This document shows positions 1 through 42,750 of a DNA stretch of 64,000 nt, piece by piece; the first letter of the stretch is position 1; each line of letters begins with the position of its first letter. The notes beneath the pieces were generated by a model. The model searched no databases. It saw only the letters and a list, made by a program, of their open reading frames with translations, and was not told the origin of the DNA. This DNA comes from Dictyostelium discoideum (taxonomy: Eukaryota), in NCBI GenBank assembly GCA_000004695.1, contig CM000151.3, positions 1,184,001 to 1,248,000 on the forward strand, in the 5' to 3' direction. The position numbers and the translations under genes were made by a program.

Positions 1-1141
<1,141 letters not shown>

Positions 1142-1556: not shown

Positions 1557-1557
<1 letters not shown>

Positions 1558-1651
<94 letters not shown>
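1558..1651. repeat. (TTA)n/(TAT)n microsatellite, intergenic
   Basis: A perfect trinucleotide run; it generates the spurious ORFs at 1505..1748. Confidence 0.9.
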
Positions 1652-1841
1652 TTATTGTCTGTCGTTGCTGTTTATGTTTTTATATTTTTTGGGATATAAT
1701 AATAAAAATAAAAGATTAAAATTAAATCTAATTATGGGAATAAAATAACAAATAAAAAAAATAAAATAAAAATAAACAAAATAAAAGAGGATAGAAAAGA
1801 AGAGAAAAAAAAAAGAACAACATTATCGATCTAGATACATA

Positions 1842-2198: not shown

Positions 2199-2245
2199 TT
2201 GTTTTGTATTTATCCAATAATAAATAAATTTATAAACTTATATTG

Positions 2246-2276
<31 letters not shown>

Positions 2277-3038
2277 ATATACACAATATTTTTATATTTA
2301 TATTATATATATATATATACAAATATACCGGCGTTAGTATACCTGTTTATATATAATATTTATAAAATAATAATAAAAAACTATAAATGGTGGCGGAAGT
2401 GGTGGTTCTATCGTTATTATATTAATATATAATATTTGTAGTAAAAAAAAAAAAACAAAAAAAAAAAATATATAAACAAAAAAAAAAAAAAAAAAAATTT
2501 ATTAAAAAAAAAATAAAAATAAAAATAAAAATAAAAATAAAATTGAAAATAAAAATAAATTAAATTTTTTTTTCACACTAACATCAAAAAAAAAAAAAAA
2601 TCTCAATTGCTTTGGTTCAAATCCATCAAAAAAAAAAAGATTATGTCATATTTTAAATATAAACAAAAAAAAATTTTAAAAAATAAATTGAATATTTTAT
2701 ACAATGTTTGAACTCAATTAAAAATAAAAATAAATATTAAAATAGATCTAAAAAAAAAAAAAAAAAAAAAAAAATAAAGAAAAATAAAAAAATTAAAAAT
2801 TTAAAAAAATTAAAAAAAAAATTGAAATATGTATATTTTCACCCAGTTTGGAATATTCACATTTTGGAGAAGAGATCCTTAAAGGAAATCTCTTTTAATT
2901 TAGCTTTTTTTGGTTTTTAAATTTATGAATAGAAAAAATTATTATTTTCTTTTTTTTTTTTTTTTTTTTTATAAAATACAAAACTCGGAGTTTATTAAAT
3001 CTTGATATAAATTAAAAAAAAAAAAAAAAAAAGAAAAT

Positions 3039-5145
3039 TTATTTTACATTTAAAATATATTCCTCCATATTAAGAAAGTTGATAGAACCCAAACCTGTAT
3101 AATTTTATGTATTATTTTGAAAAAAAAAAAAAAAATTAATAAAAAAGATTAAAAAAAAAAAAACAAAAAAAAGAAAAGGAAGACTTACCAGTAGCGGGGT
3201 CATAACCAACAGCAGCAGAGAAACCATATTGGCAACAATAGGCTCTATTACAATTTATATTACCAGTAACAATGTCATTAAATACATTTGGTTGTTCCTG
3301 AGCAGCTTGATATAGTAATGGATTTAAGAAACCTAATTGTGATTTTCCTGCTGATAGTAGTTTATCATTTATCAATGCAAAAATACCAGCAACTGTAGGT
3401 GTTGAGGCAGAAGTACCATCTACATTAATTAAACCACATGGACAACTATCAAGTGATGAATCATTTGCTGAATAACCAATAGAATATTTATGAGCCACCA
3501 ATGAGATATCAGGATATGCACGTTTAGTTGGATCAAATGAAAATGATGGCGGTAGATTTTCAGCAGTTTCAAGATATTTAGCAACTGCAACTACTTGGTA
3601 ATATGGTTGAGATTGGGTTACTGCAAAACCACCACCTGACGTTACAGCTGCACCAGTGGAAGATGAACATACTATTTCATCTGGTTGGTTAGTAATAATT
3701 TGAGTTGCACCAACTGATGTAACATATGGTGAACTTGTTGGATATTGTGGTGAAAATAGTGAACCTGCATTTTCATCAAAACTATATCCTATAATTTTAA
3801 TTCCAAGTTCATCATTACTTGTTGGTATTAAATTTTCACACGAACAACTTGAATATAGATGAGGATTTTGTGAAAAATCTTCCTCAATACTCAAATCACA
3901 TTGCCAATTAGTTTTAATAAATTCATTAACTGCATCAACAAAACTTTGATTACTAAATAAAATACCTGTATTTGCCCCAATACCCTATGTCAATTAAAAA
4001 TATTAATAAATTATTAAATTACTATTATTATAATAATTATTTAAAAAATTATAATTACATTTGGGAAAATTGCAAGTGAACCATTGGATTGAATTATAGT
4101 TATTGATGGGCATTGAGTTATTGTATGATTACAACCACCGAGCGGACAATAATGATTTAAACCATCAATTGGGCAATTGCCTGAAGTTGAATAAAAAGAA
4201 GTAGAACCATCATCACCACTACTAACGAATATTGTTGTACCACGTAAACCAATCTTTTGAAATTCAATATTTGATCTTTGGATATAAATTTGGGAGTCAA
4301 TACCAAGTGTTGGACAAAATGAAGTTGCTTGACACTGTTCTAATTCAGCCCAACTATAAGATATTGATGCAATCTTTGGTATTGGATTAAATAATTGAAT
4401 CGATGATGCCCAATCTAAAACCCATTCGCCATTACCAGATGAAAGGAATAATGTAGATATATTATTACCAATTGCTGTAATGTATTGAATATCTAAATCA
4501 CTCTCTGCCTGGCCACAATAGTTTAATCCAAAACAATTAGGTCCGGAATTGTTTACTCTAATACTTGATGAGTCAATATTATATTCTGAATCGAAATAAC
4601 CTAATGCGCCAGCGGAATAGAAATCATTAAAAGATGCAACTGAAATAGAATTATTTTCATTTTCACCAACTTGATTGAAAGGTATACCATAATAGGATTT
4701 AATAAATGATGGTGTAATTGTAACGAATGAATCCTTTACATCAATTCTTGATTTAAACATTGTTTCATAGAATTTATTATCTTCAATGAAATCCGATAAA
4801 CCTAATATAAAATCAATTTTATTTTTTAAATACTTTGGAATTGATGCTGATTCAACAATTCTAATTCTTTGATCTAAACTATTTCTTATTGATTGATAAT
4901 ATGCGAATTCCGTTTCAAATAAATTTGATGCTTTCATAACATTTATTCTTAATTGAATAAAATCTGAATGAACCATCATTTCTTCTTTACCAATATCATT
5001 ACTTTTTAACCAATTTACAACTGTTTTGACATCTTCATTACTTGGAGAAACTAATAAATTTATTTCTTCTAAACTCATAAATTTACCATATATTTTACTT
5101 TTTGGATTTGATACTTCCCAAAATTTATTTTCTAATAAATCGAGA

Positions 5146-5209
<64 letters not shown>

Positions 5210-5413
5210 TAAATAAAAATAAATAATAAATCAATTAATGAAATTTACCTGTTTTAGAAAAATTTTAAATTTTAATTCTTCATTTTCTGTTACAAATTCC
5301 TTTTGAATAAAATTTACTCTGTTTTCGACTCTAGATATTGTTAAACGTTTTGCGCTTATAATATAAACAATTAAAAAAAAAATAACAATTATTGGTTTTA
5401 TTTGAATTATCAT
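3039..5413 (-). CDS. Tripeptidyl-peptidase I / sedolisin-family serine peptidase (MEROPS S53), secreted, 4 exons, ~702 aa
   Basis: Exons on the minus strand are 5413..5249 (Met plus signal peptide MIIQIKPIIVIFFLIVYIISA; donor CAG|GTAAAT), 5150..4059 (acceptor aaaaag|AGA; donor AAT|GTAATT), 3984..3189 (acceptor acatag|GGT; donor ACTG|GTAAGT, phase 1) and 3094..3039 (acceptor tatacag|GT..; stop TAA). All junction phases are consistent. Exon 3 carries GTSASTPTVAGIFALINDKLLSAGKSQLGFLNPLLYQ, and the spliced C-terminus reads GYDPATG-LGSINF. Both match the human TPP1 active-site Ser motif GTSASTPVFGGILSLIN..LGFLNPRLYQ and its C-terminal GWDPVTGWGTPNF. YPTSSPYVTSVGAT matches TPP1 FPASSPYVTTVGGT. Confidence 0.85.
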
Positions 5414-5649
5414 TTTTTTTTTTTTTTCTATAAATTTATGTATGTCATGAAGATCTTTGTTTTTAGTTATAAAAAATAAAAAAATAATAAAATTTTAAAA
5501 AAAAAAAAAAAAGTAAGCAACCTGGTCAAAAAAAAAAAAAAAAAAAAAAAAAACCAAAATAAAAATATCTTTCAAATAAAAATAATTATCCTGGTTTTTT
5601 TAAAGTTTAAAATGAAATTTTAAGTAATTTATTTATTCAATAAAATTTT

Positions 5650-6482
5650 TTAATTTCCGAAATATCTTGATGGTCTTGGACATTCACGTGACCATCCTTT
5701 TTGACATAATGGAGTGACACCCCAACCAGTTTCAGCTTGGTTACAAACGCTTGGGAAGAAAGTATCAGTAATATTATCTAAGACACCACCAATAACAACG
5801 ATGTTGTGGTTGATACCATAACCTAATTTGAAGATTTCATTTGAGTCCATTGGTAATTGATTGAAACAACGTTCACAATACATGTTTGAAACGTATGAGG
5901 CAAAGATAACTTTTTGGAATTTAGTCCACATAATAGCAGCAGAGCACCTAAAAATTATTTTTTAAAATTATTAAATTAGTAAGATAAATAAATAAATAAA
6001 ATCATTAAAATAAAAAATATTTACATTGGACATGGTTCACCAGTAGTGTACAATGAATAGTCTTCCCAGGTGGCTTGTTGATACATAGTAGTACAATTCA
6101 TGATAGCTTTAACTTCACCATGATACATTCTTGAACCACCAACGTTAACACCAGTACAGGCAACAGTACCATTTTTGTGGACGATTGCAGCAGCAAATTT
6201 GGAGTTATTTTCAATGGCAATATCAATTGCAATTTGCATATATTTTGAATGGTAAGCTAATTCGGCGGCTGATAAATCTTTAGCATGAGTAATATCAGAC
6301 TAATGGAAAATTAAATAATTAATAATCAATTTTTATTTTATTTTATTTTTTTTTTTTTTGTCAAAATAAATACATACTGGAGCTACATCAAAGTATGGTG
6401 ATGATGGGCATTTTGAGTGATCAGCAAATACTGATGAGAATGAAAGGGTGACTAATAATAATACAAATAAAAATAATCTCAT
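5650..6482 (-). CDS. Secreted CDA-fold zinc deaminase of the GuaD/TadA guanine/nucleoside deaminase type, with a C-terminal Cys-rich extension; 3 exons, ~225 aa
   Basis: Exons on the minus strand are 6482..6378 (MRLFLFVLLLVTLSFSSVFA signal peptide; donor CCA|GTATGT), 6299..6025 (acceptor ccattag|TCT; donor CCAAT|GTAAAT, phase 2) and 5947..5650 (acceptor tttttag|G TGC). The splice restores PCPM|CSAAIMW. The zinc motifs H-G-E (MYHGEVKAIMNC) and PCPMC are present. LYTTGEPCPMCSAAIMWTKFQKVIFAS aligns with B. subtilis GuaD LYTSCEPCPMCLGAIYWARPKAVFYAA. Confidence 0.8.
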
Positions 6483-7465
6483 TTTATTTTTTTGTTTATG
6501 ATTTTAATGTTACAAATTTAATGTTGGTAATGAAAAAAATATAAAAAAAAACTTTCCTTTTTATACACTTTTTTTTTCTTTTTTTTTTTCTTTTTTTCAT
6601 ATTTTTTTAATTATTTTAACAAAAAAAAAAAAAAAAAAAAAAAAAAAGAAAATTATAATAAATAAATATCTTAAAAAAAAAAAAATCTTTATTGTCTATT
6701 TTTCCGACCATTAATAATATTTTTATTATTATATTACTTATTTTTTTATTGATTTATTTTTTATTTTTTTCTTTTTAATTTTCCTTTATTTTTTTTTATC
6801 TGTTCGTTTATTGGGGGAAATTATCACCAATCTCTTTTAAAAAAAAATAATTTGCGAACGAAATCAATTGATTCCAGTGTGTCTCTTTTCGAAATGATAA
6901 ATCTTTGCAACGAGATTAAAAATCAAACCGACCAATCATTTTCACAAAGAAAAACTTTTTTATCCGAATAATAAAGAAAACTATAAGATTTATTTCAGAT
7001 ATTTTTTAAAACAGTTTTTTTTTTTTTCTAAAATTTTTATTTTTTATTTTCATACTATCAGAAAAATTAAGAAATCTTTTTTTTGAAATTTTGGATGACA
7101 AAAAAAAAAAAATAAAATAAAAACAAAATAAAATAAATTTACCAAATGATTGTTTTCAAAAAAAAATTTAAAAAAAAAAAAAAAAAATCAGATATTAAAT
7201 TTCGTGCTTTTTCGAATATTAACCAATCAAACCTAACGAGTTCGCTCGTTTTTTTTTCTGAAATAAAAAAAAAAAAAAGAAACAAAATCGTTATTTGTCC
7301 ACGTTGTCTGAAATTTTAGTTTATGCTGTACAAGTTTGAGTAAATATATATATTTTTTTTTTTAATCATTTTTCTTGAATCATTCTTTTTTTTTTTAATC
7401 ATTTTTCTTGTATCATTCTTTTTTTTTTTCAAAGAAAAAGGTTCATCGTTCGATTATTATTTTTG

Positions 7466-7471
<6 letters not shown>

Positions 7472-7529
<58 letters not shown>

Positions 7530-7532
7530 GTT

Positions 7533-7563
<31 letters not shown>
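7472..7563. repeat. (TTA)n microsatellite, intergenic
   Basis: A perfect trinucleotide run; it generates the spurious ORF 7408..7602. Confidence 0.9.
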
Positions 7564-7982
7564 TTTGATAACGTGGTGAAGGATTTGAAGTTGTTCACTT
7601 AATCTAAAATTTCCAAAACTAAACTTTGATGCATTAGTATTTGTAATCGAGAATGGATTATATGTTGGTTTAGTTGAAAATAGACCTCTATTTATCTATA
7701 TTAACTAATTTATTTAATTTACAAATTTTTTTTTAAATGTTTATTTATCTATTTATTCAACATATTTTTTGTTAAATAATAAAATAAAAATAACCACTAA
7801 AATTGATTAATTAACCATTGTTTTTGAATTTTATCAATTGTATTTTTTTTATAACATCATTAATGCCATTAAACTCATGTTACTTTTTTAAAAGTATTTG
7901 CTCTTTTTTTTAAGGTTTTTTTATTAAAATTGGGAGATTTTGAAGAATTATCAGGAACATATAATCTATCATTTGGTGAACA

Positions 7983-9170
7983 ATGAAGGCACAAGATGAT
8001 GAAATAATGAATGAATATTCAATAGATGATTATGATGCAAATGAAAGTTCAGATACTGATGAATACATATATGATGGTTTAGAACTTGAAGATAAAATTA
8101 GAACATACAACATACAAGTAATAATTTTATTTAAAAGAAATCAAATATTTCAAGTAATTGAAAAATTTAATAAAGATTCAAAGAATTTATCAAAAAACAA
8201 ACAATGTTCAATTGATTATTAGATTTAGAAAAAGTTCAAACTGGTATTATTGAAAATGAACAAGGTGCAAATTTAATATTAGATTTATTAGTAAAACCAA
8301 TAGCAAGATATAAAGATAATTCATATACCATCTTGGTTTAATAAATCAATTAAAGAAATTGCACCAAATCAAGTTAAATATATCAAAAAGGAAAGATTAC
8401 AACATTTTAAATTATATCCATTAGAATTTATTAAAAATTTAAAAAGTGGTTCAGAATTTTTAAATCATTTTACAGAACAAGATATTATAGAATCAATTAA
8501 TAATTTAAAAGAAGAAGAACAAGAATCAATTGATAGTAGTGATAAAGTTGATAGTATATTATATATGATCATTATTTATTAACAGCACACAAGTTAAATC
8601 CAGATAAATGGGAAGATTTTGGAGTTGTAGCAAAGTTATTGGATATTCAAACTCTTGATATTCAAGTAAACGTTGCTAGTAGTTTAAATCCACTCTCAAG
8701 TAATCATTCAAATTATCACCACCAGCACCAAATTCAACATCAATTACAACATCAAATAACCAGTATCACAATCGAAACAATTGCAGCTCATGAATCAATT
8801 CTTGATACTCTTCAAATCCAGTCAGTAAATGGTATCTCTGAAAAAGAAAATGAGACAAAATCTCAACAAGCCACCCTAGAGAATGAAATTACGCTCTAAA
8901 GTTGATTGATGCAACCCATTGTTATCACAGATGGTAGTAACAGAAGCACAAGCAACAATACCACCACTATAATCAGAATCCTTATAGTAGTCAATCACCA
9001 CTTCTACAGCCAATTATCGTGGAGCAATGAGACTTATAATATCAATTCAAAAGGATTTATACTTTGTAAAATAATAATAATAGTAGACAACAACAATAAC
9101 AACAACAACAACAGCAGCAACAACCATTCAACAAGTTTATCAAGTTTAAATTCTGTTGATGTGTTGTAGC
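7983..9170 (+). pseudogene. Fragmented coding-like region, either a degenerate gene or a gene whose intron structure I cannot resolve
   Basis: Several non-low-complexity peptide segments lie in three different plus frames, separated by stops: MKAQDDEIMNEYSIDDYDANESSDTDEYIYDGLELEDK.. (7983..8222), LLDLEKVQTGIIENEQGANLILDLLVKPIARYKDNSYTILV (8226..), ..IKEIAPNQVKYIKKERLQHFKLYPLEFIKNLKSGSEFLNHFTEQDIIESINNLKEEEQ.., and ..NPDKWEDFGVVAKLLDIQTLDIQ.. (8639..8899). The frame changes do not coincide with credible GT..AG introns of 60 nt or more. Confidence 0.25.
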
Positions 9171-9193
9171 GAATTTTTTCACCCACTGTATAA

Positions 9194-9224
<31 letters not shown>

Positions 9225-9465
9225 AAAAATATAAATAAAATATAATAATAAAAAAAAAAATAGTGCTAATAAAAAAAAAAAAAAAAAAAAAAATAATGAT
9301 AATAATAACAATTATAATTAATATAATGAATAATAAAAAAAAAAAAAAATAATAATAATAATAACAAATAATAATAATAATAAATAATAAAAAGAAAAAA
9401 AATTTGCATAATTCAATATAAAGCAAATTAAATTAAGTTTTGTTTATTTTAATTTTTTAATATTT

Positions 9466-10641
9466 TTATTTTGGTAGAGAACCTTCTAAAGCTAATAAAG
9501 AAAGGGGATGAATTGGTTTGTTTTTATCAACATAATTGAACCAAATTGTTGGTTCTTTACCACGTAAATTGAATGACGTTAATTGATCTAGTGGCACATA
9601 AATAGCGCCCATACTTTCATAATTTGGAATGAGACGAGGTGGTTGATTTTCATCGATTGGTTCAGCATAAAAAATGACACGCATTCGTGAGTAATTAACC
9701 ATTGGACTAAATTCCACTCTGAGTATACCTTTTAATTCAATGTCAATACCAGTTTCTTCTTTTGTTTCTCTGATAGCACATTGTTGTAAAGCTTCATTAA
9801 CATTTAATTTTCCACCAGGTAACCAATACCCACGACCTGCAGCTTCATTGACTAATAAATAAGTATTATTTGATCTTTTTCTAACTACAACCAAACAAAA
9901 TGCATATATTTTTGAGAGTGATAATTGCTTTTCAGTTGGTGCACCTTTTTCACCATGAGATTCATGTAAATGAACACCCATTCTTTCCATTGGTCTAATA
10001 TTACAAATTGGACATAACGGTATTGAATTTTCAATATCATTTAATGAACAATTACAATGAAATATGAAAATATGTTCCCTAAGATGATCTTGGGATAAAT
10101 TTGTTGCAAATCCACTCTTATGACAAATTGTACATTTAAAATCACCAGATTTATCAATTGATGTAGTTTCAACGATTTTCAATGACTCTATAACATCATT
10201 GATTTTATTTGTAACTAATGAACTACCATTTTTAAATAATTTACATAGAAACATTGGGAATAATTTATCATTAATTTCATCTCTTCTTTTAGATTCCATT
10301 GAAATAGTTGAGTCGTCAATATCAATAAAAGTAACAATGAATGAATTCATTTTTCTCTTTTCTCTATATTCCACAATTGTTTTAGTTTTATTATCTATGA
10401 ACTCCATAATAGAACTCTCATTTGAACTTACTTGTTTATCTATTAAAATATGAATTAAAATTGCAACAATTGGATAATCACTTTTATATTCATTTAATAT
10501 TTTATTAGTTTCATTTTCATCACTACTCTTTATTATCTCTTTAAATTTTCCTTGTTTTAAAAAATTATTTAAAAAATTATCTTTTTGATCTTTTGAACTT
10601 TCTTTATTTGAAAAAAATATTGATTCAATTAATAATGACAT
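9466..10641 (-). CDS. Nudix hydrolase-domain protein with an N-terminal Di19/KCMF1-type C2H2 zinc-finger pair; single exon, 391 aa
   Basis: A Nudix box GGKLNVNEALQQCAIRETKEETGI (G-x5-E-x7-REUxEExGU) lies in the C-terminal half. The zinc-finger pair is CTICHKSGF..HLREHIFIFH followed by CPICNIRPMERMGVHLHESHG, which fits the zf-Di19 C-x2-C..H-x3-H pattern. A real ATG is at 10641. Confidence 0.85.
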   Translation of the reverse strand: MSLLIESIFFSNKESSKDQKDNFLNNFLKQGKFKEIIKSSDENETNKILNEYKSDYPIVAILIHILIDKQVSSNESSIMEFIDNKTKTIVEYREKRKMNSFIVTFIDIDDSTISMESKRRDEINDKLFPMFLCKLFKNGSSLVTNKINDVIESLKIVETTSIDKSGDFKCTICHKSGFATNLSQDHLREHIFIFHCNCSLNDIENSIPLCPICNIRPMERMGVHLHESHGEKGAPTEKQLSLSKIYAFCLVVVRKRSNNTYLLVNEAAGRGYWLPGGKLNVNEALQQCAIRETKEETGIDIELKGILRVEFSPMVNYSRMRVIFYAEPIDENQPPRLIPNYESMGAIYVPLDQLTSFNLRGKEPTIWFNYVDKNKPIHPLSLLALEGSLPK

Positions 10642-11224
10642 TATATTATTTATTATTATTATATGTTGGGCTGTAACTAAATTTTTTTAAAAAAAAAAAA
10701 AATAAAAAAAACAAAATAAAAAAAAAAAAAAAAAAAGGGTGAGAAAAAATAAAGAAAAAATTAAATTAAAAAATTAAATTAAAAAAAAAGATATTTTCAA
10801 ATAATTTTTTAGAACTGAGGAGTATTAGTATACATTCTTTTTCTTTGAACATAATCCTATAGGCACCTGTAACAAAATCAAAACATTGTTTATACTTTTC
10901 ATAAGGTAATGACCAAATTATACCTTGATCTATATTTCTACGAACATCAGCAAAGTCACAAATATGAATTCCGTGTCACTATAATAACTTCCATACATTG
11001 CTTTTGGTATTAACTCCCATGCAACTCTATCTGGACCTTTTATTGAACGGTCAAATTGTACGATCATATGTTTTAACATCAGAGTATAAAAACAGTGAAT
11101 TTTACCACTCTGGTAATGGAGGATAAGTTTTACAAAGCTTTGGCCAGTCATCACATAAATAATCATTTTCGTATGAAAATCACAAAATAAATAAATTGTT
11201 AGGAAATACCTCAATTGAATTCTA

Positions 11225-11730
11225 GTTTTGTTGAAAAAGTCATTTCATCTGATAATGTTTCATTTATTAATGATTTATGCAAAACAATTAAAATCAATTC
11301 AAATGACGATCACAAAGAAGTGCAGTGTTTATAAAACAATTAAATAATTTTAAAGAATATTAAAAAAAGGATCATTTTTTTAAATAAAATAAATATAATA
11401 AAGTTTTTGTAAAAAAAAATTTTTAATTATTATTATTTATTTTTTTAAAAATTATTTAATTTTATTTATCATGGTTAATTTGCTTTAACTCTTATGCTTT
11501 AATTTCTTTTGTTAATTTTGAAGCCCACGGACACCAGAAGTAACTATTGAATCATTTATTTATTTTATTTTTAAAAAAAAATATGTTAAATTGTATTTTT
11601 TAATTTTCAAATTTTTATTTAATTGAATACATACCCTGGGAGGAAAGCTATTATTTATTGTTTTATAAATAATAAAAATAGTCATAATAAAAATAATAAT
11701 AATAATAATAATTATAATAATAATAATAAT

Positions 11731-11776
<46 letters not shown>

Positions 11777-11790
11777 GTGGAATTCATTCC
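11225..11790. repeat. Copy A of a ~560-bp dispersed/segmental repeat. Its left end holds a degenerate protein-kinase-like fragment and its right end runs into (AAT)n.
   Basis: It is collinear with 13621..14250. The conserved core reads ..atcatggttaatttgctttaactc..gttaattttgaagcccacggacaccagaagtaactattgaat...tacataccctgggaggaaagctattatttattgtttta, then (AAT)n from 11689 to 11776. Confidence 0.7.
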
Positions 11791-12033
11791 CCATCTATTT
11801 AATGATATTCACCCAAGATTAATTTTTTTTTTTTTAATTAATTATTAAAAAATTAATTTCATTGGCCCCACAAACCAAGATTTCATTTTTTTTTGAAATT
11901 ACATTTTATTAAGCTATAATTAAAATTTCAAACATAATTTATATTTTTTTTTTTTTTTTTTTTTTTTATTCTTCATAAAACAAACTACATTCTTATTAAT
12001 TTACTATACAAATTAATTTCAAATTTAAAAATA

Positions 12034-12612
12034 TGAAATTATTATATTTTATAGTGTTTTTATTAATTGCTTTAAAACTTTGTTTTTCAGAGTATTGCGG
12101 GGAGACTTATCGCAATACTCTGCCCAACAAAGTTTTAAAGCAATTATTAGAAAATAGAAATTGTTATTCATTTATAGGTTGTAGAAATTAAACATGTTTA
12201 TATGAAACAATAGATTTGGAAGATGAAGTTGATTGTACAGTCATGTATCGACTGTTTTGATAGATATGGTGTTAAAAATACTCCAAATGATTCATTATGC
12301 ACCATGTGATATGTTTCTATGTGATACTCAAATTGGTTGTGTTGCTATACCAAAAGCAAATTGTCCAGAACCAAACCAATGTTAAATTCCATTAGTCTGT
12401 AATAGAGAAACTGATATTTGCGAATACGATGAAATTGATTGTGATGATGATAATGAATGTACCAATGACTATTGTGACCCAATAATAGGAGAATGTGTCC
12501 ACTTTTCCAATGATACCATTTGTTCAACTAAAGCAAGTAACTTCTCTAGTTGTTTCCATAGTGGAATATGTGGTGAGTTTGGCTGTAAATTTATAGAAGA
12601 CAGTTGTTAATG
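12034..12612 (+). pseudogene. Degenerate fragment of a Dictyostelium extracellular Cys-rich 'CTDC' repeat protein (Pfam Dicty_CTDC-like)
   Basis: An N-terminal signal-peptide-like MKLLYFIVFLLIALKLCFS is followed by ..EYDEIDCDDDNECTNDYCDPIIGECVHFSNDTICSTKASNFSSCFHSGICGEFGCKFIEDSC (12425..12610), which has the C-x-D-x-N-x-C-T-x-D-x-C signature. The pieces are interrupted by multiple stops and frameshifts, and no intron model rescues them. Confidence 0.35.
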
Positions 12613-13599
12613 ATGGTTGTAATCCTTTTGATTTTAATAAGATTTTGTCAACTTTACAAATATTATTAAAAATTTTAATTTTATCTTGATCAGTATGATT
12701 TGAAATGAATGGTTCACTTTTTCTTGATAAAACTATTAATAAATTATCTATTGGTATTGTTGGATTTTTCCAAATTAATCTTACAACTCCAAATTTAATT
12801 CATTTATTTTTGATTTAAAATTTTTTATTCCTTTTTTTTATTATTTTTTTATACATTTTTTTTTTTTTTTTTTTTTTTTCACATTTCAACATTAGCGAAA
12901 AGTAATTCTATGAGGCGCTGGTGGGTTCAATTGAAAAATTTATAACTAAATAAGCTTATTCTAAAGTGAAAACAATAAACAAATATTTTAAAATAAATAA
13001 AATAACAAAATGATTTAAAATTACAAAATAAATAAAATGAAAAAACGATTTTTTATATTCATCTTTATAAACACTTAGTTTATTATTTATTTTCGTCATT
13101 TTAATCATTTTTGTTTTATTATTTATTTTCATCATTTTATAAAAATTATTAGATTAATGGTAAAAAATCAAATGTTATCCAAATTGATTCATCGTTCTTT
13201 GTTAAATTATCACCATCATCAGTTCTACATAATGGAGGTATAATGGACAGGTGGATGAATGGAACAAAAAGTACGGGTATACCCGAACCACTAACAGAAT
13301 CAACGGCGGCACAATTAGTTTCCAACTTTTTGTTTTAGTTTACATCATGGAACCATAACATAACGCATACCAAACTCTGGTTACGTTCTAAATTTAAATG
13401 AACATTCATGAAAATTCTTCTTTTTTTCTTTTGAATCTTTATCTTTTTTACTATTATTATTATTAATTATTATTATTATTTTTATTATTAATAATATTTC
13501 CAAAATAATATTTTTTTTTAATTTATTTTTGACTGGTTTATTTTTTAGGGAATAAAATAAAGTAGTTGGAGTAAAAAAAAAATTAAAAAATTGAAAAAA

Positions 13600-14250
<651 letters not shown>

Positions 14251-32064: not shown

Positions 32065-32640
32065 ATGAAAATATTATATTTAATTTTTACAATTTTAATT
32101 TTAATTAATTTTACATTTGCAAATGATGGATTTGTTTTAGTTACACCAATGGGAACAGGAGAAGAATGTTCATCAACTCCATATGGTGAAGGATACTATT
32201 TACCAACTGGAACAGAGATTACAATCGATTATGAATGCTATCAATTTGATTTTGTAAACTCATCAACTCATTTACAAGTTCAATATTTAGGTAAAAACTG
32301 CACAGCTGAACATCCATCAGTCACTATTTTCCCAATGAACGAATGTGTTGATTTCAAAATTAAAGAAGACGACCTTTCATTTATGTCAATAATTACAGCC
32401 AATGATGTTATTCCAGAACAATCAATTTCATACGTTTATTATTACTATTCAAACTTTTGTAGTGGTCCAACTTACCAATTATTCTTTACAAATGGTTACT
32501 CAAATGAATATTCAAAATATCAATGTGTAAATGGTAAACCACAAGTTTTTGTTTGTACTGATTCCGGTTCTTGTACTCCAATCGATGCAAGTGGTTGTAC
32601 AAATAAAAATGTACCAATTCCATATAGAGTAGAATGTTAA
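32065..32640 (+). CDS. Small secreted cysteine-rich protein (191 aa)
   Basis: The signal peptide is MKILYLIFTILILINFTFA. The mature region has about 14 Cys (..GEECSSTPYGEGYY..YECYQF..CTAEHP..CVDF..CSGPTY..CVNGKPQVFVCTDSGSCTPIDASGCTNK..VEC*). It is a single ORF with a real ATG. Confidence 0.7.
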   Translation: MKILYLIFTILILINFTFANDGFVLVTPMGTGEECSSTPYGEGYYLPTGTEITIDYECYQFDFVNSSTHLQVQYLGKNCTAEHPSVTIFPMNECVDFKIKEDDLSFMSIITANDVIPEQSISYVYYYYSNFCSGPTYQLFFTNGYSNEYSKYQCVNGKPQVFVCTDSGSCTPIDASGCTNKNVPIPYRVEC

Positions 32641-32701: not shown

Positions 32702-34187
32702 TTAAACTGCTTGTTTATTATCAATATTATTACTATTACTACTAGTTGTCGCTTGATAATCATAAATATCATTTGGATGATTTTCTATATTATTATTGTT
32801 ATTATTGTTATTATTATTATTATTATCCTTTGGAATTGATGATTGATTATCAATATTATTCATATCATTGTCAGAATTAAAATCATCATCATCAGGATGA
32901 TCATCGGTATTCTTTTTAATATTGAAAAGGATACGATGGAAAAGGTATTTCTTATTGATATGGCTACCCAAAACTTGACGAGCATAAACTGCATCTTGAT
33001 GAGCTGGTAATCTTCTGAAAAACATTAACCAGAAACACCAGAGGGCATAAAACATAATTAGAATGGCAATGATAAAGAGTAATGGAGTATTCCAATTTGC
33101 AATTTGTTGAAAAACACCTTGAAAACCCAATAGACCTGTATCTGGTTCAATTCCTTTATGAATATCGGCAACTGCCTTAATCAATACACCACCAAATGCA
33201 CCGAAAAACATTGATCTACCAACGGCACCAATTCTAGCGAAACCCAAAGCACCCCAATATAAATATTTATTCATACGTTCTGTTGAAAGTTCTCTCTTGA
33301 ATTTATCAGGTTTAATAAAGTAAACCAAGTACACTATTGACACCACAAAGAAAGTTACACCCAACACACAAACGATGATTTGTCCGAAAATATACTTGTA
33401 AAGGAAACCCAAGATATGGGATGTGCCACTTACCTCTTTTCTAGTGTGTGCCAATACTCTTGCAGCGTCAACACCCAATACAAAATAAAAACCACTTGAG
33501 AAAACTCTACCAAATCTCTTTAAAATTGCACCTGCACTTTTGTGTCCCAATTGATCAACATCGAATACAATATAAAAAATACCCCAACAACCATAACTCC
33601 ATAAACCGAGTAACAATAAGAATATTATACCACCACTAAACATTTCTTGTAATTCTTCAAATACACCATCTGGACCTGCTACTTTTCTTTCTTTATCAAC
33701 TGCTGCTGCTAATGATAATACACCTAATGAACAATATAAAATTGCTTTTTATAAAATAAAAAAAAAAAATAAAATAAAAAAAAATAAAAAAATAATTAAT
33801 ATTTGGTTTTGTTTTTTTTTTTTCTTTTTCCAAAAAAATATATATAATGTTACTTTTTGAAAGAAAACCAAATCTAGTAATAATTTGAGCTGCTAAATAA
33901 AATCTTTGATTTTGATTGATATCCCATTTATATTTATTTTTATTAAATATAAATTTAAAGTAACCCCATTTACTGGTTTCTTTTAATCTTTTTCTTTCAC
34001 TAAGTTCTTCATACTTTTTATTTAAATCTACATCTGGTTTAATACTTGGTGTTCCATGTTCACCATTCTCTCTATGTGAATCTCTATATTCATAATACTG
34101 TTTTCTATCATAATCCTCTTCAATTGGTGTTATATCGTCCCTATCTATAATTTTATAATTAATAATAATTTTTTTTTTATTATTCAC
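32702..34187 (-). CDS. Multi-pass membrane protein (~346-458 aa) of unknown family. Exon 2 is secure; the 5' exon and start codon are unresolved.
   Basis: Exon 2 is 33744..32702 (acceptor ttataaaaag|CA ATT.., reading ..ILYCSLGVLSLAAAVDKERKVAGPDGVFEELQEMFSGGIIFLLLLG.. with several TM helices and Gly-rich stretches such as GALGFARIGAVGRSMFFGAFGGVLIKAV). The putative exon 1 is 34187..33854 (..WGYFKFIFNKNKYKWDINQNQRFYLAAQIITRFGFLSK, donor A|GTAACA, phase 1, matching the acceptor). That frame begins with GTG and contains no ATG. Translation may instead start at M33643, or at a 5' mini-exon I did not find. Confidence 0.55.
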
Positions 34188-34305
34188 GTATATATAAAAT
34201 ATAAAAAAAAAAAAAAAAAATTTTTAAAGTGTTAGAGTTTTTTTTTTTTTTTTTTTTACATATAAAATTGTCAAGTCCAAAAGTTATTTTTTTTTTTTTT
34301 TCACC

Positions 34306-34349
<44 letters not shown>

Positions 34350-34426
34350 GCAAATGTGTATATGTTTTATGGTATTATTTTTATGTTATTATTATTATCA
34401 TTATTATTATTCTAAATAATTTATAA

Positions 34427-34581
34427 CTATATGGAAGAGGAGGGGAGGGATAAAAAAAAATAATAAAAAAATAGTAAACTATTATAATATTCACATTCAA
34501 CTTTTAAACCACTTGGTGATGAGTTTTCATTTGGGTTTTTTGATAAACTTGCTGAAATATCTTTTATATTATTGTTATCAC

Positions 34582-34629
<48 letters not shown>

Positions 34630-35488
34630 TTGTATTATTACTATCATCAATAGTATTTGGATTATCCATACTATCTAATGTTGTATTTGTTGTTGAAGTT
34701 GTAGTAGTAGTAGTTGTTGTTGTTGTTGTATTATTACTATCGTTATTGTTGTTTTCGTGAATGTCAAAACTATTAATAATTTTATTTTGTTCGGCCAAAT
34801 TGTTTTTTATTTTATTTTCGTCCAAGGTCAAAGTCGAATTCGGAGCAAGTTCACGTGCTTTTTTTCTTTTTGAGTTTTTTGTGTGGTGGTCTTTTGATGA
34901 TTTTTTTGATTTTTTTTGGATTTTATTTTTGTTTTTATTTTTATTTTCACTTGAAATATTTTCAGTGGTCGAATTGTTTTTATTTTCACCAGTGTTATCA
35001 CTACTACTACTACTACTACTATCACTATTATCACTGTTATCAATATCAATTTCTATGAAATCTTTATTTTTACTGAAGTTATTTAAACTACTACTATTAC
35101 TAAAACTATTATTATTACTATTATTACTGTTATTATTACTATTATTACTGCTACTGCTACTATTGTTGTTGTTGTTGTTGTTTTTGTTATATGAGGATGA
35201 TGTGAGGTGAGGAGTTATTGAGGATAACATATCCCTCATACTTTTTTTACGTAATGAACAATATTCGGTGGAATTCTCTAAATCGTCATGTTCCAAGTTT
35301 GCACCTTCTTTACCAAATTCTATATTTTTTAAGATTGGATCAGGTGATGTCCTAGTTGTAGTTGTTTTTTTAATATCGTTATCATCTTCTTCGTCAACTA
35401 CAATTGCACCATTTTTACTTAAATTTATATTATTATTATTATCATTATTATTATTTATATTATTATCATTTATATTATTATCATTCAT
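34427..35488 (-). CDS. Asn/Ser/Thr-rich low-complexity protein (353 aa), single exon
   Basis: An ORF runs from the ATG at 35488 to the TAG at 34427. The non-repetitive N-terminal part is ..GAIVVDEEDDNDIKKTTTTRTSPDPILKNIEFGKEGANLEHDDLENSTEYCSLRKKSMRDMLSSITPHLTSS.. I recognise no domain. Confidence 0.55.
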
Positions 35489-35581
35489 TATTTTAATAAA
35501 TTATTATTTTTAAAAATTAAAAACTAAAAATATATTATTATTATTTTTTATTTTTTATTATTTATTATTATTATTATTTTT

Positions 35582-36683: not shown

Positions 36684-37324
36684 TTACATCCAATTATAAG
36701 ATGGAGTTAATGAACCTTCGAATTTAAGAATTGAATTAATGAAAGAATCAGTTTCTTTGGCATAAAGACGATTATCGATATGGATCATATCTTGATCAAT
36801 GTAGAAATCGATATCCAATTGATTATTCCATTTAGTTTCACCTTTACCTAAAACGTTGAATAATTTATGTTTGTAACAAGTGAGTTTAACACGTAAATCC
36901 TCTGGATCGATTTGAAGTAAACCAGCCAACTTTTGAATGGAGATAGTTGAATACAAAGTGATATAACTACGAATGGTTGTCAAGAGGGATTGTTGTTTGA
37001 CCTCCTCTAAAAACAATGATAATTGAAGACGATGTGGATCCAAAGCGGTTACATTGAAACCTGAAATGTATGGTGGTACTGGACCGATACAACGTGGGGC
37101 AGCAAATGTATACAATTCCTCATAAACTGAAAGATCACCCTTTTGTAATCTTAATAATTTATCACCAAATTTCTCTTTCAAATTATTACTAACATTTTCA
37201 TCAATCTTATTTGGATAAAGTGCTTGACAAATTGTTAATAATGCATACATTTTATCTGTTTTTTTCTCATTCTAAATAAAATAAATAAATAAATAATTAA
37301 TTAATATAAAATCTTTTCAATTTG

Positions 37325-37368
<44 letters not shown>

Positions 37369-37983
37369 TATTAATTATAAAAAACAACTTACATGATCAG
37401 ATTGGAAATTTTGAGATTTTGATTTTGAAGCAACAGAAACTAAAATTGTATTTAAAGCTTTAGTGGCTTCATTATATTTTCTTGACATAAGATAGGCGAA
37501 ACCCAAATAGTAGTAAAGGGTGATATGACAAGCGGTGACGTAGGTATACATGGCTTTCTTACCCATATCGATGAGTTCCAATGTTTTCAAGGCCAATGTG
37601 TAATCACCCAATAAACATTGAACACGTACTAAACTGATTACAGAGTAGTAACCCAACATTTTGTAGACTGGATGTGAACAGAAATCTTCAGATGATGATT
37701 CGAATCTATTGGTATTTGCACTGAAAATTTGTGATTTCTTAATGATATAATAAAGATAACGAATAACGTTTGTGGTATCCCAAATCTCTGGATTCTCTGA
37801 TAAAAAGTCAACATCTTGTTTCTTTAACTTAAATTTAGCAAAAGTATGATATTGATAAACGAATTCATCAACAAGATCCCATAACCATGCATTTGGTAAA
37901 TCAATTTCAACATCATTTGGTGAATTTGCACCTAAAAATAAATAAATAAATAAAAAAAAATAAAAAAATAAAAAATTAGTATG

Positions 37984-38028
<45 letters not shown>

Positions 38029-38754
38029 TTTAATTAATAACTTACTTAATAAAGTATGGAAAATTTGATAATAATTTTGCCATGATTCAACACAGGTGTT
38101 TATATTTGGTTGAAAAACTAAAGCATAATAATAACGATAATAGATTTCTTTGTATAATAAAACAAAGAAACGATCGGTGAAGGAGGATTCTTCAAATTTA
38201 TCACCCAAGATTGGAATTAAGTTTTCAATGGTTGGTAATGCGCAATGTGGATAATAGGTTTCACAACTCTTGAAGAAACTATCGTATGAAACTAAAATAT
38301 CTTGATGTGATTGTGATTTAAAGTTATTGTAGAGATTGATGAAATAGTTGATCACTGGTGTGTAAAGAGCTGTTGCTGGTGGTAAAAAGTTGCTTTGGAA
38401 TTGAGCTGATTGGTTTTGTTGAGTTTGTTGTTGATATGCTTGTAATTGTTGAACTTGTTGTTGTGATAAATTAATTGGGAAACTCTCGACATTTGATGGG
38501 GTTTTACCACCACGATGACCACCTTGTTTATTTTGTTGTTGATTGCCACCACCTTGTTGATTACCTTGTTGATTTTGATTACCTTGTTGATTTTGGTGTT
38601 TATTTCTATGTTGTTGTTGTTGTTGTTGTTGGCCACCTTGTTGTTGTTGGTTATTGTTATTTCTATTTTGATAGTTTTTATTATTACCTCCTTTACGATT
38701 ATTATTTTGATTGGTATTGGTATTTGTGGTACCAGCGTTATTTGTTTGACTCAT
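36684..38754 (-). CDS. eif3L: Eukaryotic translation initiation factor 3 subunit L (eIF3L, PCI-domain), 3 exons, ~611 aa
   Basis: Exons on the minus strand are 38754..38046 (poly-Q/N-rich N-terminus; donor TTA A|GTAAGT), 37931..37393 (acceptor tttttag|GT GCA; donor CAT|GTAAGT) and 37271..36684 (acceptor ttatttag|AAT GAG). Matches to human EIF3L are [18 protein letters not shown] for [53 protein letters not shown] for [52 protein letters not shown] for FLILYKELYYRHIYAKV, and the C-terminal [24 protein letters not shown] for LREKYGDKMLRMQKGDPQVYEELF. Confidence 0.9.
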
Positions 38755-39039
38755 TCTGTACAGAATCTATTTTTTGATTTTATTATAAATATAATAATTT
38801 AGACACACAAATGAATGTTATCTTTTTTTTTTTATAAGTATAAATAAAATAGTCAATCAAATTGAAAAAAAATAAAAATAAAAAAATAAAAAAATTGAAA
38901 AATTGAAAAAAATGAAAAATTTTTTTTTTTTTTTTTTTTCTTTTTTTTCCTAACAAAAAAAAAACGTGCAAGAAGTTCAAAAAAAAAAAAAAAAAAAATG
39001 GAAAATTTAAAAATAATTAAAAAAAAAACCAAATTTGTA

Positions 39040-39070
<31 letters not shown>

Positions 39071-39493
39071 TTATTATTATTATTATTATTAATAATTTAT
39101 TATTTAGTATTTTATTTTGTTTAGAAAAAAAAAATATACAATTATATATTTTTTTCTAACCAAAGTTAAATAATAATAAATTATTAATAAAAAAAATCAA
39201 TTATTTAATATGAAATTTATTAAATAATAAAAATAATAAAAAACCAATTAATTAATTTTTATAAAATTATTATTAAAAAATAAAAAATTATCTGATCAGG
39301 AATTGAAGTTATGATTGGGAACTTAAGTTAGGAAATAAAAAACGTGAAAAAAGCCCCTTTTTTTAATTTTTTTTTTTTTTTTAAAATTTTTTTTTTTTTT
39401 CGAATTTTAATATTTTTTTTTTTTTTTTTTTTTTTTTTTCTCAATTGATTATTTTCATTTATATAATTATTTCATTTTTATATAAATAAAAAA
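38755..39493. promoter_or_regulatory. Shared divergent (bidirectional) promoter region between eIF3L on the minus strand and eIF3A on the plus strand
   Basis: This 739-bp interval is more than 90% A+T and lies between two start codons that point away from each other. It has no ORF. It contains long (TTA)n and (TAA)n runs and poly-T tracts. Confidence 0.45.
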
Positions 39494-42400
39494 ATGTCAA
39501 CACAACAAGCATTAGCTCAGGCTAATGAACATGCTTTAAGCCAAGCAAATGGTAATGTTATTTAAATAAAATAAAATAAAAAATTATTTATTTATACTAA
39601 TTTTTCTTTTTTTTAAATATATATATATATATAGATTTAATTAAAGTTGGATCAAAATTAAGAGCATTAAGTGTCTTAAGAGATTTATTAAGTGATCGTA
39701 GTCAATGGCATTCAAGTTTAGAACAAATTATGTCATTATACGTTTCATTATGTGCTGAACAATTAGATTATCAATCATTAAGAGATGGTATTCATCATTT
39801 CAAAGTTTCAATCATGTCACAAAAGGAATTCTCAATTGTACCATTAGAAAATATCTTTAAAGAAATCATTACACCAATTGAACAAAAAGTAGACGAATTA
39901 AAAGAGAAAATTGAAAAAGAAAATCAAGAGAATCCATTAGTTGAACAAAATGAAATCTCACTCATTGATCCACAACAAACTCTCTTATTCTCTTATATGA
40001 AATATTTATTTGAAGCTTATAAAGCAATGATTGAAGTACTCACTCGTCAAAATACTAAATTTGAACATACTAAATTTGATCATTCTAAATTTGATTCAAC
40101 TTTACTTGTAAGTATTTTTTTATTTTAAAAATAACAAATATTTATTTATATATTAATTTTTATATTTATTTTTATTTTTTTTAAAAAGAAAATTTCAACT
40201 CAAGCATTAAATTATTGTTCAAAATATCAAAGAAAACCAGATTTTATGGTATTAACAGAATTATTTAGATCAAGTATTGAACAATTATTTAAAGTACCAT
40301 CATTGGATACAGTGAATACTCATATTGAAATTCGTTTCCATCAATTGACCGTTGCAATTTCATTGGGATTATATTTGATTGCTTACAAGTCAATTGAAGA
40401 TATTAATATTATGTTATTCTCATTGTTAGTTAAACCAAAGCCAGTAGTTTTAGCAACATACTATCAAAAGTTGGCTCAAGTCTATTGGATTACCAATGCT
40501 CATTTATTACATGCCTACGCATTATATAAACATTATGTTTACAATAAGAATTATAATATGAATTTCACACAAGCCGATTCTCAATTATACTCTTCAGTAT
40601 TATTGGTTGCTGCATTATCATCACCAATTCAAGAGGTTAATCAAAATCAATCATTATTACAATTTGATTCACAATCACAAAGAGCTATGGGATTGGCATC
40701 ATTGTTGTCACTCCAATCCATTCCAAAACGTGAAACTTTCCTCGTTGACGTTCGTAAGGTTACCAATGAAGTTTATCCAGAGTTGGCCGATCTCGCTTCA
40801 ATCTTTGAGAAGAAAACATCACCATTGATGTTTGCCAAGCTTTTAGAGCCAAAGATTAAATTCATCGAAGGTCACGCACAACTCTCTCAATACTTAAAAC
40901 CATTCCTTCGTGTAGTTTTCACAAAGATCGCTCTTCAAGTTAGCAAAGTCTACGAAGTTATCAAGATTGAAGAATTCATTAAATTGGTACCATTCTATAC
41001 AAAGACTCAAATTGAACTCTACCTTTTGGAATCAATAAAGAGAAAGTTAATCGGTGCTAGAATCGATCATAAGAATGGTGTAATTCGTTTCGGTCACTAC
41101 GACTTTGACTCTGCCAAAATCTCTGATCAATTATCAAACTTGGCCACTGGTGTTGGTAAAGCTTTGAATATGATTGAACCAGAAAAGAAACAACAACAAC
41201 ATGATAAACTCAAGAAAGAGGTCTACGTCAAGATCATCAATTCACTCCAAGATGAACATCGTCGTATTCTCGCTCGTAAGGAAATCATTGAAAAGAAGAA
41301 AATCTACATGGAACAACAAGATCGTATCAAGAAACAAAAAGAACATGAAGAACTTCAAAAGAAAATCCAAGAGAAAGTCGCTCGTGATCAACAACGTCTC
41401 AAAGAGGATATGGAACGTCGTGAAAAAGAACAAGCCGAAGAGGAATCACAACAAAATCAACTCGATCAAACCATCAATGCCATCGATAAAGCCAAGGTTG
41501 AAATGAAAGCCAAGATCGCTAAAATCGCCAAACAATTGTACATTCTCGAACGTGCCTACCGTGAAGAGGAATTACCAGTCGTTGAAAGCCTCCAAAAAAC
41601 TAAAGCCGTCGAAGATAAGCAATACTTTGAATCAACTCAAGCCGAATTCCTTAAACTCCATCGTGAAGTTCATGACCGTAATGTCACCGAAAAAGCTCGT
41701 CTCAACAGAATCGTACCAGAATATCAAAAATTCACTCAAGCCGTCATCGAAGAGAGAAAGAAACAATTACCAGCCCTTCAAAAGGAGCAAGAAAAGAGAT
41801 TCCAAGAGTTCCTCATTCAACAAGAACAAGATGTCCAAGAGAGAAAGGCAAAGAGAGAGAAAGCTCGTATCGCCGCTGCCCAAGAAAAAGCTAGAAAGGA
41901 AGAACAAGAAAGAGAAAGACTCGAACAAGAACATTTGGAACAAGAACGTTTGGAAGAAGAGAGAAAGAATGCTCCATACGTTCCACCATCTTCAAGAAGA
42001 ACTTTCAGAGACGACGATGATGAACGTGAAGAAAGTGGTAGATGGGGTGGTAGACGTGGTGGTGATGATTTCGGTAGATCCAAAGCTGATGAAGGTGATC
42101 GTTGGGGTAGACGTGAAGATGCTCCACCACCAAGACGTGACGAAGGTGGTGATCGTTGGGGTAGACGTGAAGATGCTCCACCACCAAGACGTGATGAAGG
42201 TGGTGACAGATGGGGTAAACGTGAAGATGCTCCACCACCAAGACGTGACGAAGGTGGTTGGGGTAGACGTGATGATGCTCCACCACCAAGACGTGACGAA
42301 GGTGGCGATAGATGGGGTAGACGTGATGATGCTCCACCAAGACGTGATGATGCTCCACCACCAAGACGTGATGATGCTCCACCACCAAGACGTGATGAAG

Positions 42401-42750
42401 GTGGTGATCGTTGGGGTAGACGTGATGATGCTCCACCAAGAAGAGATGGAGGTGGTAGTGGTGGTTTCGGTGGTAGACGTGATGATGCCCCACCAAGACG
42501 TGACGAAGGTGGTGATCGTTGGGGTAGACGTGAAGATGCTCCACCACCAAGACGTGACGAAGGTGGTGATCGTTGGGGTAGACGTGATGATGCTCCACCA
42601 AGAAGAGACGGTGGTGGTGGTAGTGGTTTTGGTAGAAATCAAGGAGCCCAAGGTGATCAAAACGATAGCTGGAGATCCGATAACAAAAAAGAAGAAAACA
42701 AAAAAGATGCTGATGGTTGGCAAACAGTTGGTGCCAAAAAGAGATATTAA
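39494..42750 (+). CDS. eif3A: Eukaryotic translation initiation factor 3 subunit A (eIF3a, PCI-domain, with a C-terminal R/D/W-rich decapeptide repeat array), 3 exons, ~1030 aa
   Basis: Exons are 39494..39551 (MSTQQALAQANEHALSQAN, donor G|GTAATG, phase 1), 39635..40107 (acceptor atatatatag|AT..; donor CTT|GTAAGT) and 40189..42750 (acceptor ttaaaaag|AAA ATT). Matches to human EIF3A are KISTQALNYCSKYQRKPDF for IAQQAFKFCLQYTRKAEF, EHRRILARKEIIEKKK for EHQRILARRQTIEERK, more than 12 tandem RRDDAPPPRRDEGGDRWG units for the human DDDRGPRRG repeats, and the end DADGWQTVGAKKRY* for DEDGWTTVRR*. Confidence 0.9.

Follow-up and report, generated by a model that had tools for sequence, protein, structure and literature searches.

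A head-to-head eIF3A-eIF3L gene pair conserved across dictyostelids and recurring in two phyla of zoosporic fungi

Eukaryotic gene order is usually treated as neutral and fast-scrambled. A 64,000-nt window of Dictyostelium discoideum AX4 chromosome 2 (contig CM000151.3, positions 1,184,001 to 1,248,000; D. discoideum coordinates below are those of this window) raises the question of why two genes for subunits of the translation initiation factor eIF3 should stand side by side. eIF3L, on the minus strand, and eIF3A, on the plus strand, are head-to-head neighbours, 5′ end to 5′ end, with 739 bp (38755-39493) from ATG to ATG. This spacing is about the mean intergenic size of the compact D. discoideum genome, and the distance by itself is unremarkable. 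Both genes had been annotated earlier and their existence is not new. A first-pass annotation of the sequence read them as stoichiometric partners transcribed from one shared bidirectional promoter. We asked whether the two genes are what they seem, whether their junction is kept in other organisms, and what might keep it.

Two eIF3 subunit genes and their junction

The spliced eIF3L coding sequence (CDS) has three exons with canonical GT-AG introns and encodes 611 amino acids (aa). The protein matches the Pfam profile PF10255 (Paf67) with E=2.3e-136 and 455 bits, against a cut-off of 27, aligning residues 221-600 with profile positions 2-397 of 397. Its top six matches among solved structures are all EIF3L of mammalian eIF3 (E=1.8e-100 to 2.9e-86, residues 158-601), with human EIF3L chains at E~1e-100. 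The spliced eIF3A CDS, also of three exons, encodes 1030 aa, every residue of which is that of the D. discoideum AX4 protein Q86B20/XP_645332, encoded on the 8.48-Mb chromosome 2. It matches PF22591 (eIF3a_PCI_TPR-like, E=1.3e-54, residues 12-389) and the PCI domain PF01399 (E=1.7e-06, residues 406-479), and among solved structures human EIF3A (E=3.3e-50) and yeast eIF3a (~1e-32). The protein further carries a charged, coiled-coil, spectrin-like middle, an R/D/W-rich repeat array towards the C-terminus and a DGW-TV end (DADGWQTVGAKKRY). The Pfam profiles, the human chains and the Q86B20 identity bear out the earlier assignment of two eIF3 subunits arranged head-to-head, and the coordinates given for them hold: the start codons lie at 38754 (minus) and 39494 (plus), and the spacer is exactly 739 bp.

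A check for an intervening gene in 38755-39493 found none. Neither a tRNA nor an Rfam match at E<=1 lies inside the spacer, its only open reading frames (ORFs) are 53-65-aa poly-K/F/I/Y translations of AT-rich DNA, and no gene is annotated between eIF3A and eIF3L at any of eight annotated orthologous loci.

To place the junction in an evolutionary frame, eIF3L orthologues were collected from all four dictyostelid groups (1-4) and their neighbourhoods were read. A divergent eIF3A is the immediate upstream neighbour of eIF3L in all seven dictyostelids examined, D. discoideum included. The other six have head-to-head spacers of 647 bp (D. dimigraforme), 710 bp (D. purpureum), 299 bp (T. lacteum), 358 bp (P. 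violaceum), 384 bp (H. album) and 436 bp (C. fasciculata), and the orthology of their eIF3A genes was established by tblastn, at 47-90% identity over ~600-830 residues.

The outer neighbours of the pair differ. An all-versus-all tblastx comparison of eight pair-bearing loci, with the pair itself masked, found that, over 28 comparisons, just two flanking genes are shared. The first, a Q_salvage gene, adjoins eIF3L in H. album and in C. fasciculata; these two species have different genes as its divergent partner, which provides one small matched control junction that is not conserved. The other is a DUF1206 gene, found 3′ of eIF3L in D. discoideum and 3′ of eIF3A in C. fasciculata. Its position on opposite sides of the pair indicates that the neighbourhood was rearranged around an intact junction. 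Synteny between dictyostelid groups is reported to be essentially absent (PMC5097433), and the collinear blocks that D. discoideum shares with D. purpureum average 2.8 genes (PMC3188802). Measured against both the tblastx flanks and the baseline of PMC5097433, the eIF3A-eIF3L junction outlasts the surrounding gene order.

The pair also occurs beyond the Dictyostelia. In Chytridiales sp. JEL 0842, eIF3A (5414..9100, minus) and eIF3L (10001..12762, plus) stand head-to-head across a gap of 900 bp, and in Gonapodya prolifera eIF3A (4258..8667, minus) and eIF3L (from 10001, plus) do so across an annotated gap of 1333 bp. Both fungal pairs were confirmed with Pfam and tblastn. The two species are zoosporic fungi of different phyla, JEL 0842 belonging to the Chytridiomycota and Gonapodya to the Monoblepharomycota, and the orientation is the same, head-to-head, in all nine pair-bearing genomes. 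For a given pair in a genome of ~10,000 genes the chance of head-to-head adjacency is ~5e-5; about 1e-3 chance pairs are expected over the 19 non-dictyostelid loci, and two were observed. We are highly confident that the pair exists and that its conservation is not random. The earlier view of the pairing as functionally meaningful gains support from a junction present in seven of seven dictyostelids with scrambled flanks and recurring in two fungal phyla. With the same non-paralogous orthologues adjacent in these organisms, the linkage falls within the definition of deep microsynteny used in PMC3514665 and PMC2871058.

Anatomy of the spacer

The composition of the window is of the dictyostelid type, with 30-55% GC in coding and <15% GC in intergenic DNA, and the spacer itself is 7-16% GC. 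Comparison with D. dimigraforme, a sister species within group 4, picks out two conserved blocks, one next to each gene (Table 1). The eIF3L-side block is 78-92% identical, with G/C positions kept at 6/7, 8/8 and 5/5, and the eIF3A-side block is 76-86% identical; in the AT-rich centre (38980-39204) zero G/C positions are conserved. Directly after the sense-strand poly-T tract of each gene comes the motif TCAATT(T)GATT, so placed that the two copies are in mirror image. The eIF3L copy, TCAATTTGATT, sits ~101-111 nt upstream of the ATG, and the eIF3A copy, TCAATTGATT, 53 nt upstream.

D. discoideum genes start ~2 bp after a sense-strand poly-T tract, with a TATA box ~29 bp upstream of the start site of transcription (TSS) and a nucleosome-free region centred ~54 bp upstream of it (Chang et al., PMC3371697). 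TSS positions predicted by this rule from the ends of the poly-T tracts, rather than mapped, would fall at ~38864 (minus) for eIF3L and ~39441 (plus) for eIF3A. Given the two conserved proximal blocks and the ~577-bp separation of the predicted TSSs, the D. discoideum spacer looks like two back-to-back core promoters and not one shared core. The first-pass proposal of one shared bidirectional promoter goes further than the sequence shows: the proximal blocks (38780-38930 and 39355-39493) are separate and have ~400 bp of unconserved DNA between them. Under the loose definition of a bidirectional arrangement (TSSs <1 kb apart) the pair does qualify, at 739 bp from ATG to ATG and ~577 bp between predicted TSSs. 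The layout may be tighter elsewhere; in T. lacteum the whole spacer, both 5′ untranslated regions (UTRs) included, is 299 bp, and the promoters must therefore abut there.

TCAATT(T)GATT was considered as an eIF3-specific element and ruled out by its over-representation across the whole window, where it is seen 15 times against 3.4 expected (0 of 100 shuffles reach 15). Its sites include 451, 882, 6862, 8208, 8524, 13896, 24141, 26544, 38855, 39441, 54061 and 57607. Among the 15 copies, only the two in the spacer follow dense poly-T (31 and 32 T/40) and precede an ORF. A second motif, GAASTTCA, is likewise over-represented in the window (13 seen, 3.8 expected), at sites including 14536, 19610, 19630, 41664, 55570, 38972, 41350 and 44055. 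Two of these, 19610 and 19630, are 20 bp apart, and five of the sites are a 9-bp palindrome, TGAASTTCA, counted on both strands. As a candidate shared element of the spacer, GAASTTCA, or its core AASTTCA, is a weak lead only.

Origin and retention of the linkage

What, then, holds the junction together? We lean, by a little, towards shared or coordinated regulation as the reason for its retention. From the conservation of the pair we infer co-regulation, and selection for it: both genes would rely on the same compact 5′ regulatory region, whose upstream elements and nucleosome-free promoter DNA, adjacent or overlapping, would lead to coordinated transcription, and a rearrangement that split the pair would impair the expression of one subunit or of both. 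Each gene would keep its own core promoter in D. discoideum, and the sharing would lie in upstream elements or chromatin state rather than in the core. As to history, we put at even chances the proposition that the linkage predates the split between Amoebozoa and Opisthokonta and that selection has kept it in Dictyostelia and in chytrid-grade fungi. A single ancient origin followed by losses in most lineages is the most likely course of events, since loss is the default and a specific gain is improbable.

A number of observations weigh against this account. Within the spacer, the ~400-bp middle, including the (TTA)n tract, is unalignable between D. discoideum and D. dimigraforme, and predicted TSSs ~577 bp apart, together with the two-promoter layout, are compatible with independent promoters. 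Exact k-mer sharing (k=6-8) across the spacers of six dictyostelid lineages equals the shuffled null. AASTTCA is present in 6/6 lineages, the sole one-degenerate 7-mer to be so, and 28 of 200 shuffles give a 6/6 motif (p~0.14). At the level of the complex, eIF3a and eIF3l are not known to be direct partners in the eIF3 octamer, where the neighbours of eIF3l are eIF3k and eIF3e. Stoichiometry offers no obvious ground for linking these two subunits in particular, and C. elegans can do without eIF3l (PMC5045169).

The distribution of the pair adds to these points. It is not found in Physocladia obscura, Umbelopsis vinacea or Capsaspora owczarzaki. A metagenome survey yielded 80 eIF3L loci, mostly of mRNA length. 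Among them, 14 environmental eukaryote contigs extend 5 kb or more upstream of eIF3L, and in none of these did a chytrid eIF3A probe, one that picks up the Capsaspora eIF3A at 1e-102, find an eIF3A. From these absences, the pair is dispensable in many lineages. The main gap is that the amoebozoan loci compared are those of dictyostelids only. A search for amoebozoan outgroups over representative proteins returned ticks, rusts, algae and one Mastigamoeba transcript without a contig. A word-indexed search with the PCI region of D. discoideum eIF3A (511 aa) gave one distant match and missed the protein's own cluster, low complexity having probably swamped the candidates.

This patchiness is what would be seen had the pair been assembled separately in stem Dictyostelia and stem chytridiomyceta and had selection favouring linked regulation then fixed it in both, a convergent origin that we hold possible, if doubtful. 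It is in keeping with a distribution that leaves out Capsaspora, Umbelopsis, Physocladia and the 14 environmental contigs, and with the lack of a bridging non-dictyostelid amoebozoan among the loci compared. To our knowledge the pair is absent from human too, where EIF3A and EIF3L lie on chromosomes 10 and 22, respectively. Against two independent gains stands the low probability, ~1e-4 for each random draw of a neighbour, that this one adjacency would form twice with its orientation unchanged, which makes one gain and several losses the likelier sequence. Nor does a comparison of eIF3A identities give any sign of gene transfer between dictyostelids and fungi, the D. discoideum protein being ~26% and the Capsaspora protein ~48% identical to the chytrid one. 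Convergence is a statement about history alone, and the regulatory mechanism could hold alongside it.

The main rival concerns the mechanism. Retention could be passive if nearly every breakpoint in a short 5′-5′ spacer beside at least one essential gene, eIF3A, severed a gene from its promoter and were lethal, so that promoter entanglement by itself kept the junction and membership of the same complex were incidental. Short distance and divergent orientation do generally predict the conservation of gene pairs (PMC2871058, PMC3514665), the dictyostelid spacers are only 299-739 bp, no cis-element shared between them is significantly conserved, and the core promoters look separate. All intergenic regions are short in these genomes, yet synteny between groups is reported as essentially absent (PMC5097433), and the matched divergent junction of the Q_salvage gene was not kept. 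Passive retention also leaves unexplained why the partner should belong to the same complex, when adjacency between any two eIF3 genes has a prior of ~1%, and why the pair should recur in two fungal phyla. We consider it unlikely; it explains the persistence of the pair less well than shared or coordinated regulation does.

That the adjacency in D. discoideum arose by chance, with no functional or evolutionary meaning, would fit a gene-dense genome in which many unrelated genes lie head-to-head within 1 kb. D. discoideum has ~12,500 genes, among them 12-13 for eIF3 subunits. The probability that any two eIF3 genes are adjacent by chance in one genome is ~1%, and the case from one genome is modest. 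A few adjacent subunit pairs are to be expected by chance among hundreds of multi-subunit complexes. The comparative data change this. With the junction kept in seven of seven dictyostelids despite scrambled flanks and recurring in two fungal phyla, where ~1e-3 chance pairs are expected outside the dictyostelids, chance is effectively refuted. Least probable of all is a relic of local inverted duplication, by which two PCI proteins were born as neighbouring paralogues: both proteins match the Pfam PCI domain, eIF3L weakly, but BLASTP detects no similarity between the two (best E=1.9), and the divergence of the PCI subunits found in eIF3, in the proteasome lid and in the COP9 signalosome is older than the last eukaryotic common ancestor, so that such a duplication would be earlier than every lineage compared here and leave the selective retention of the junction unexplained.

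Among known divergent pairs, those of the histones (H2A-H2B and H3-H4) are ancient, widely conserved and composed of stoichiometric partners. They differ from eIF3A-eIF3L in that histones heterodimerise directly and at a strict 1:1 ratio, whereas eIF3a and eIF3l are not known to dimerise directly and some organisms can dispense with eIF3l. Mammalian bidirectional promoters (TSSs <1 kb apart) resemble the pair in their divergent orientation, spacers below 1 kb and functionally related partners. They have a single CpG-island nucleosome-free region with TSSs within a few hundred bp, whereas in D. discoideum two poly-T/TSS modules appear to stand on either side of an AT-rich spacer that is not conserved.

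Genes of related function are over-represented among conserved divergent pairs (PMC2871058, PMC3514665). The closest likeness is to HSPE1-HSPD1 (Hsp10-Hsp60), which is conserved from human to Capsaspora and fungi and has a proven bidirectional promoter (PMC3514665; PMC2871058). In both cases non-paralogous genes for one complex are arranged 5′-5′ across a short spacer with very deep conservation. HSPE1-HSPD1 differs in having an experimentally shown bidirectional promoter and co-expression (human r=0.81), in occurring in animals and in mirroring groES-groEL, while eIF3A-eIF3L, known here from sequence, is absent from the holozoan examined and, as far as we know, from human, and has no prokaryotic antecedent. 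The ribosomal protein pair L13/S16, divergent and conserved in fungi and alveolates, is another case of translation-machinery genes linked across eukaryotic supergroups; it involves other genes and other taxa and was found by a systematic survey of 64 genomes (PMC2871058). eIF3A-eIF3L is not among the pairs listed in the accessible part of the supplements to that survey. We found no report of the linkage in the literature searched, which covered divergent, head-to-head, bidirectional, gene-pair and Dictyostelium eIF3 contexts, and its deep conservation appears to be unreported.

Few linkages are conserved between kingdoms, as both PMC3514665 and PMC2871058 stress, and eIF3A-eIF3L would add a translation-factor example to them. 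If ancestral to Amoebozoa and Opisthokonta, and hence more than a billion years old, it would be among very few non-paralogous linkages between eukaryotic supergroups. It would also suggest a specific, unrecognised regulatory coupling of the nucleation subunit eIF3a with the ‘dispensable’ peripheral subunit eIF3l; the pairing is a hint that transcription may tie the amount of eIF3l to that of the core subunit. In other organisms, eIF3l has been linked to lifespan and stress phenotypes. The genetics of D. discoideum and a spacer of 739 bp make shared regulation, dosage balance and promoter entanglement tractable to tell apart.

Gene models and neighbouring features

The positions of exons, introns and spacer elements are collected in Table 1.

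Table 1 Features of the eIF3L-eIF3A locus in the D. discoideum window
Feature	Position	Strand	Description
eIF3L exon 3	36684..37271	minus	Includes stop codon (36684-36686)
eIF3L intron 2	37272..37392	minus	GTAAGT..TTTAG; (ATT)n microsatellite inside
eIF3L exon 2	37393..37931	minus	Continuous alignment to human EIF3L
eIF3L intron 1	37932..38045	minus	GT..AG, 114 nt, without in-frame stop
eIF3L exon 1	38046..38754	minus	ATG 38754; Q/N/G-rich N-terminal tract, then conserved region begins; splice model, GT at 38045-38044
Divergent intergenic region	38755..39493		739 bp, 7-16% GC
eIF3L-proximal conserved block	38780..38930	minus	Putative 5′UTR and core promoter; sense-strand T-rich tract ends at TCAATTTGATT (38865..38855)
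Non-conserved AT-rich spacer	38931..39354		T20 run; GAAGTTCA (38972-38979); (TTA)n 39042-39116; slightly GC-richer island 39290-39350
eIF3A-proximal conserved block	39355..39493	plus	82-nt T-rich tract 39358-39439, then TCAATTGATT (39441-39450); predicted 5′UTR ~52 nt
eIF3A exon 1	39494..39551	plus	58 nt; model identical to Q86B20
eIF3A exon 2	39635..40107	plus	Splice model, Q86B20 identity
eIF3A exon 3	40189..42750	plus	Stop codon included, ends 42750
eIF3A C-terminal tandem array	42094..42600	plus	54-nt unit, 9.7 copies, encodes GDRWGRRDDAPPPRRDEG repeats; DADGWQTVGAKKRY end follows

The fragment sizes that the first-pass annotation quoted, 188+459 aa for eIF3L and 132+834 aa for eIF3A, match the list of ORFs exactly; the gene structures drawn from them needed some revision. 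eIF3L has three exons rather than two. Its first intron lacks an in-frame stop, and a mechanical ORF list therefore joins exons 1 and 2 as one ORF of 459 aa that runs in frame through 37932-38045. The poly-F/K stretch of this ORF is the intron, spurious as protein, and such an intron can mislead annotators who work from ORFs in AT-rich genomes. For eIF3A the three exons, including a first exon of 58 nt, are a small correction to the earlier reading. The more general lesson is that in-frame introns and tiny first exons mask the identity of genes in ORF-based views of AT-rich genomes.

The eIF3L model equals the 611-aa D. discoideum database protein from residue 72 on. The eight differences all fall in residues 39-71, within the N-terminal Q/G/N repeat. 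A 30-nt coding tandem repeat at 38518-38604, in the Q/G/N-rich part of exon 1, is polymorphic between D. discoideum strains.

At the C-terminus of eIF3A, the R/D/W array and the DGWxTV end had been recognised correctly, while the decapeptide unit ascribed to the array had not: the repeat is 54 nt, or 18 residues (GDRWGRRDDAPPPRRDEG), long, with an 8-residue sub-period, and is present in 9.7 copies. The unit of human eIF3A is 10 residues. Annotated eIF3A proteins of close relatives range from 1005 to 1173 aa, a spread which suggests that repeat number may evolve quickly.

Observations on two of the loci without the pair may be added. In Physocladia obscura, a 300-aa IF-2B-family protein (PF01008) is encoded at 8473-9740 of the locus, in divergent position upstream of eIF3L. 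It may be another translation-initiation gene, PF01008 covering both eIF2B subunits and methylthioribose-1-phosphate isomerase. The Capsaspora owczarzaki eIF3A (10001-13951 of its locus) appears split into adjacent models of 453 aa and 654 aa, with D. discoideum eIF3A residues 602-692 matching inside the second; the divergent upstream neighbour of this split gene belongs to the Ribosomal_L23 family.

A wider cluster of translation genes in the D. discoideum window was considered and rejected, the neighbours being DUF1206, counting-factor-associated, MATH, FNIP-repeat and Kelch/RhoGAP genes; eIF3A-eIF3L is a gene pair, not a cluster. The DUF1206 gene occupies 32705-35500 (minus) of the window and 595-3035 of the C. 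fasciculata locus, and its switch of sides relative to the pair needs at least two inversions or one transposition. Adjoining it in the window, a 190-aa ORF at 32065-32634 (plus) matches the counting factor-associated protein A/B/C family (PF11912, E=1.7e-26).

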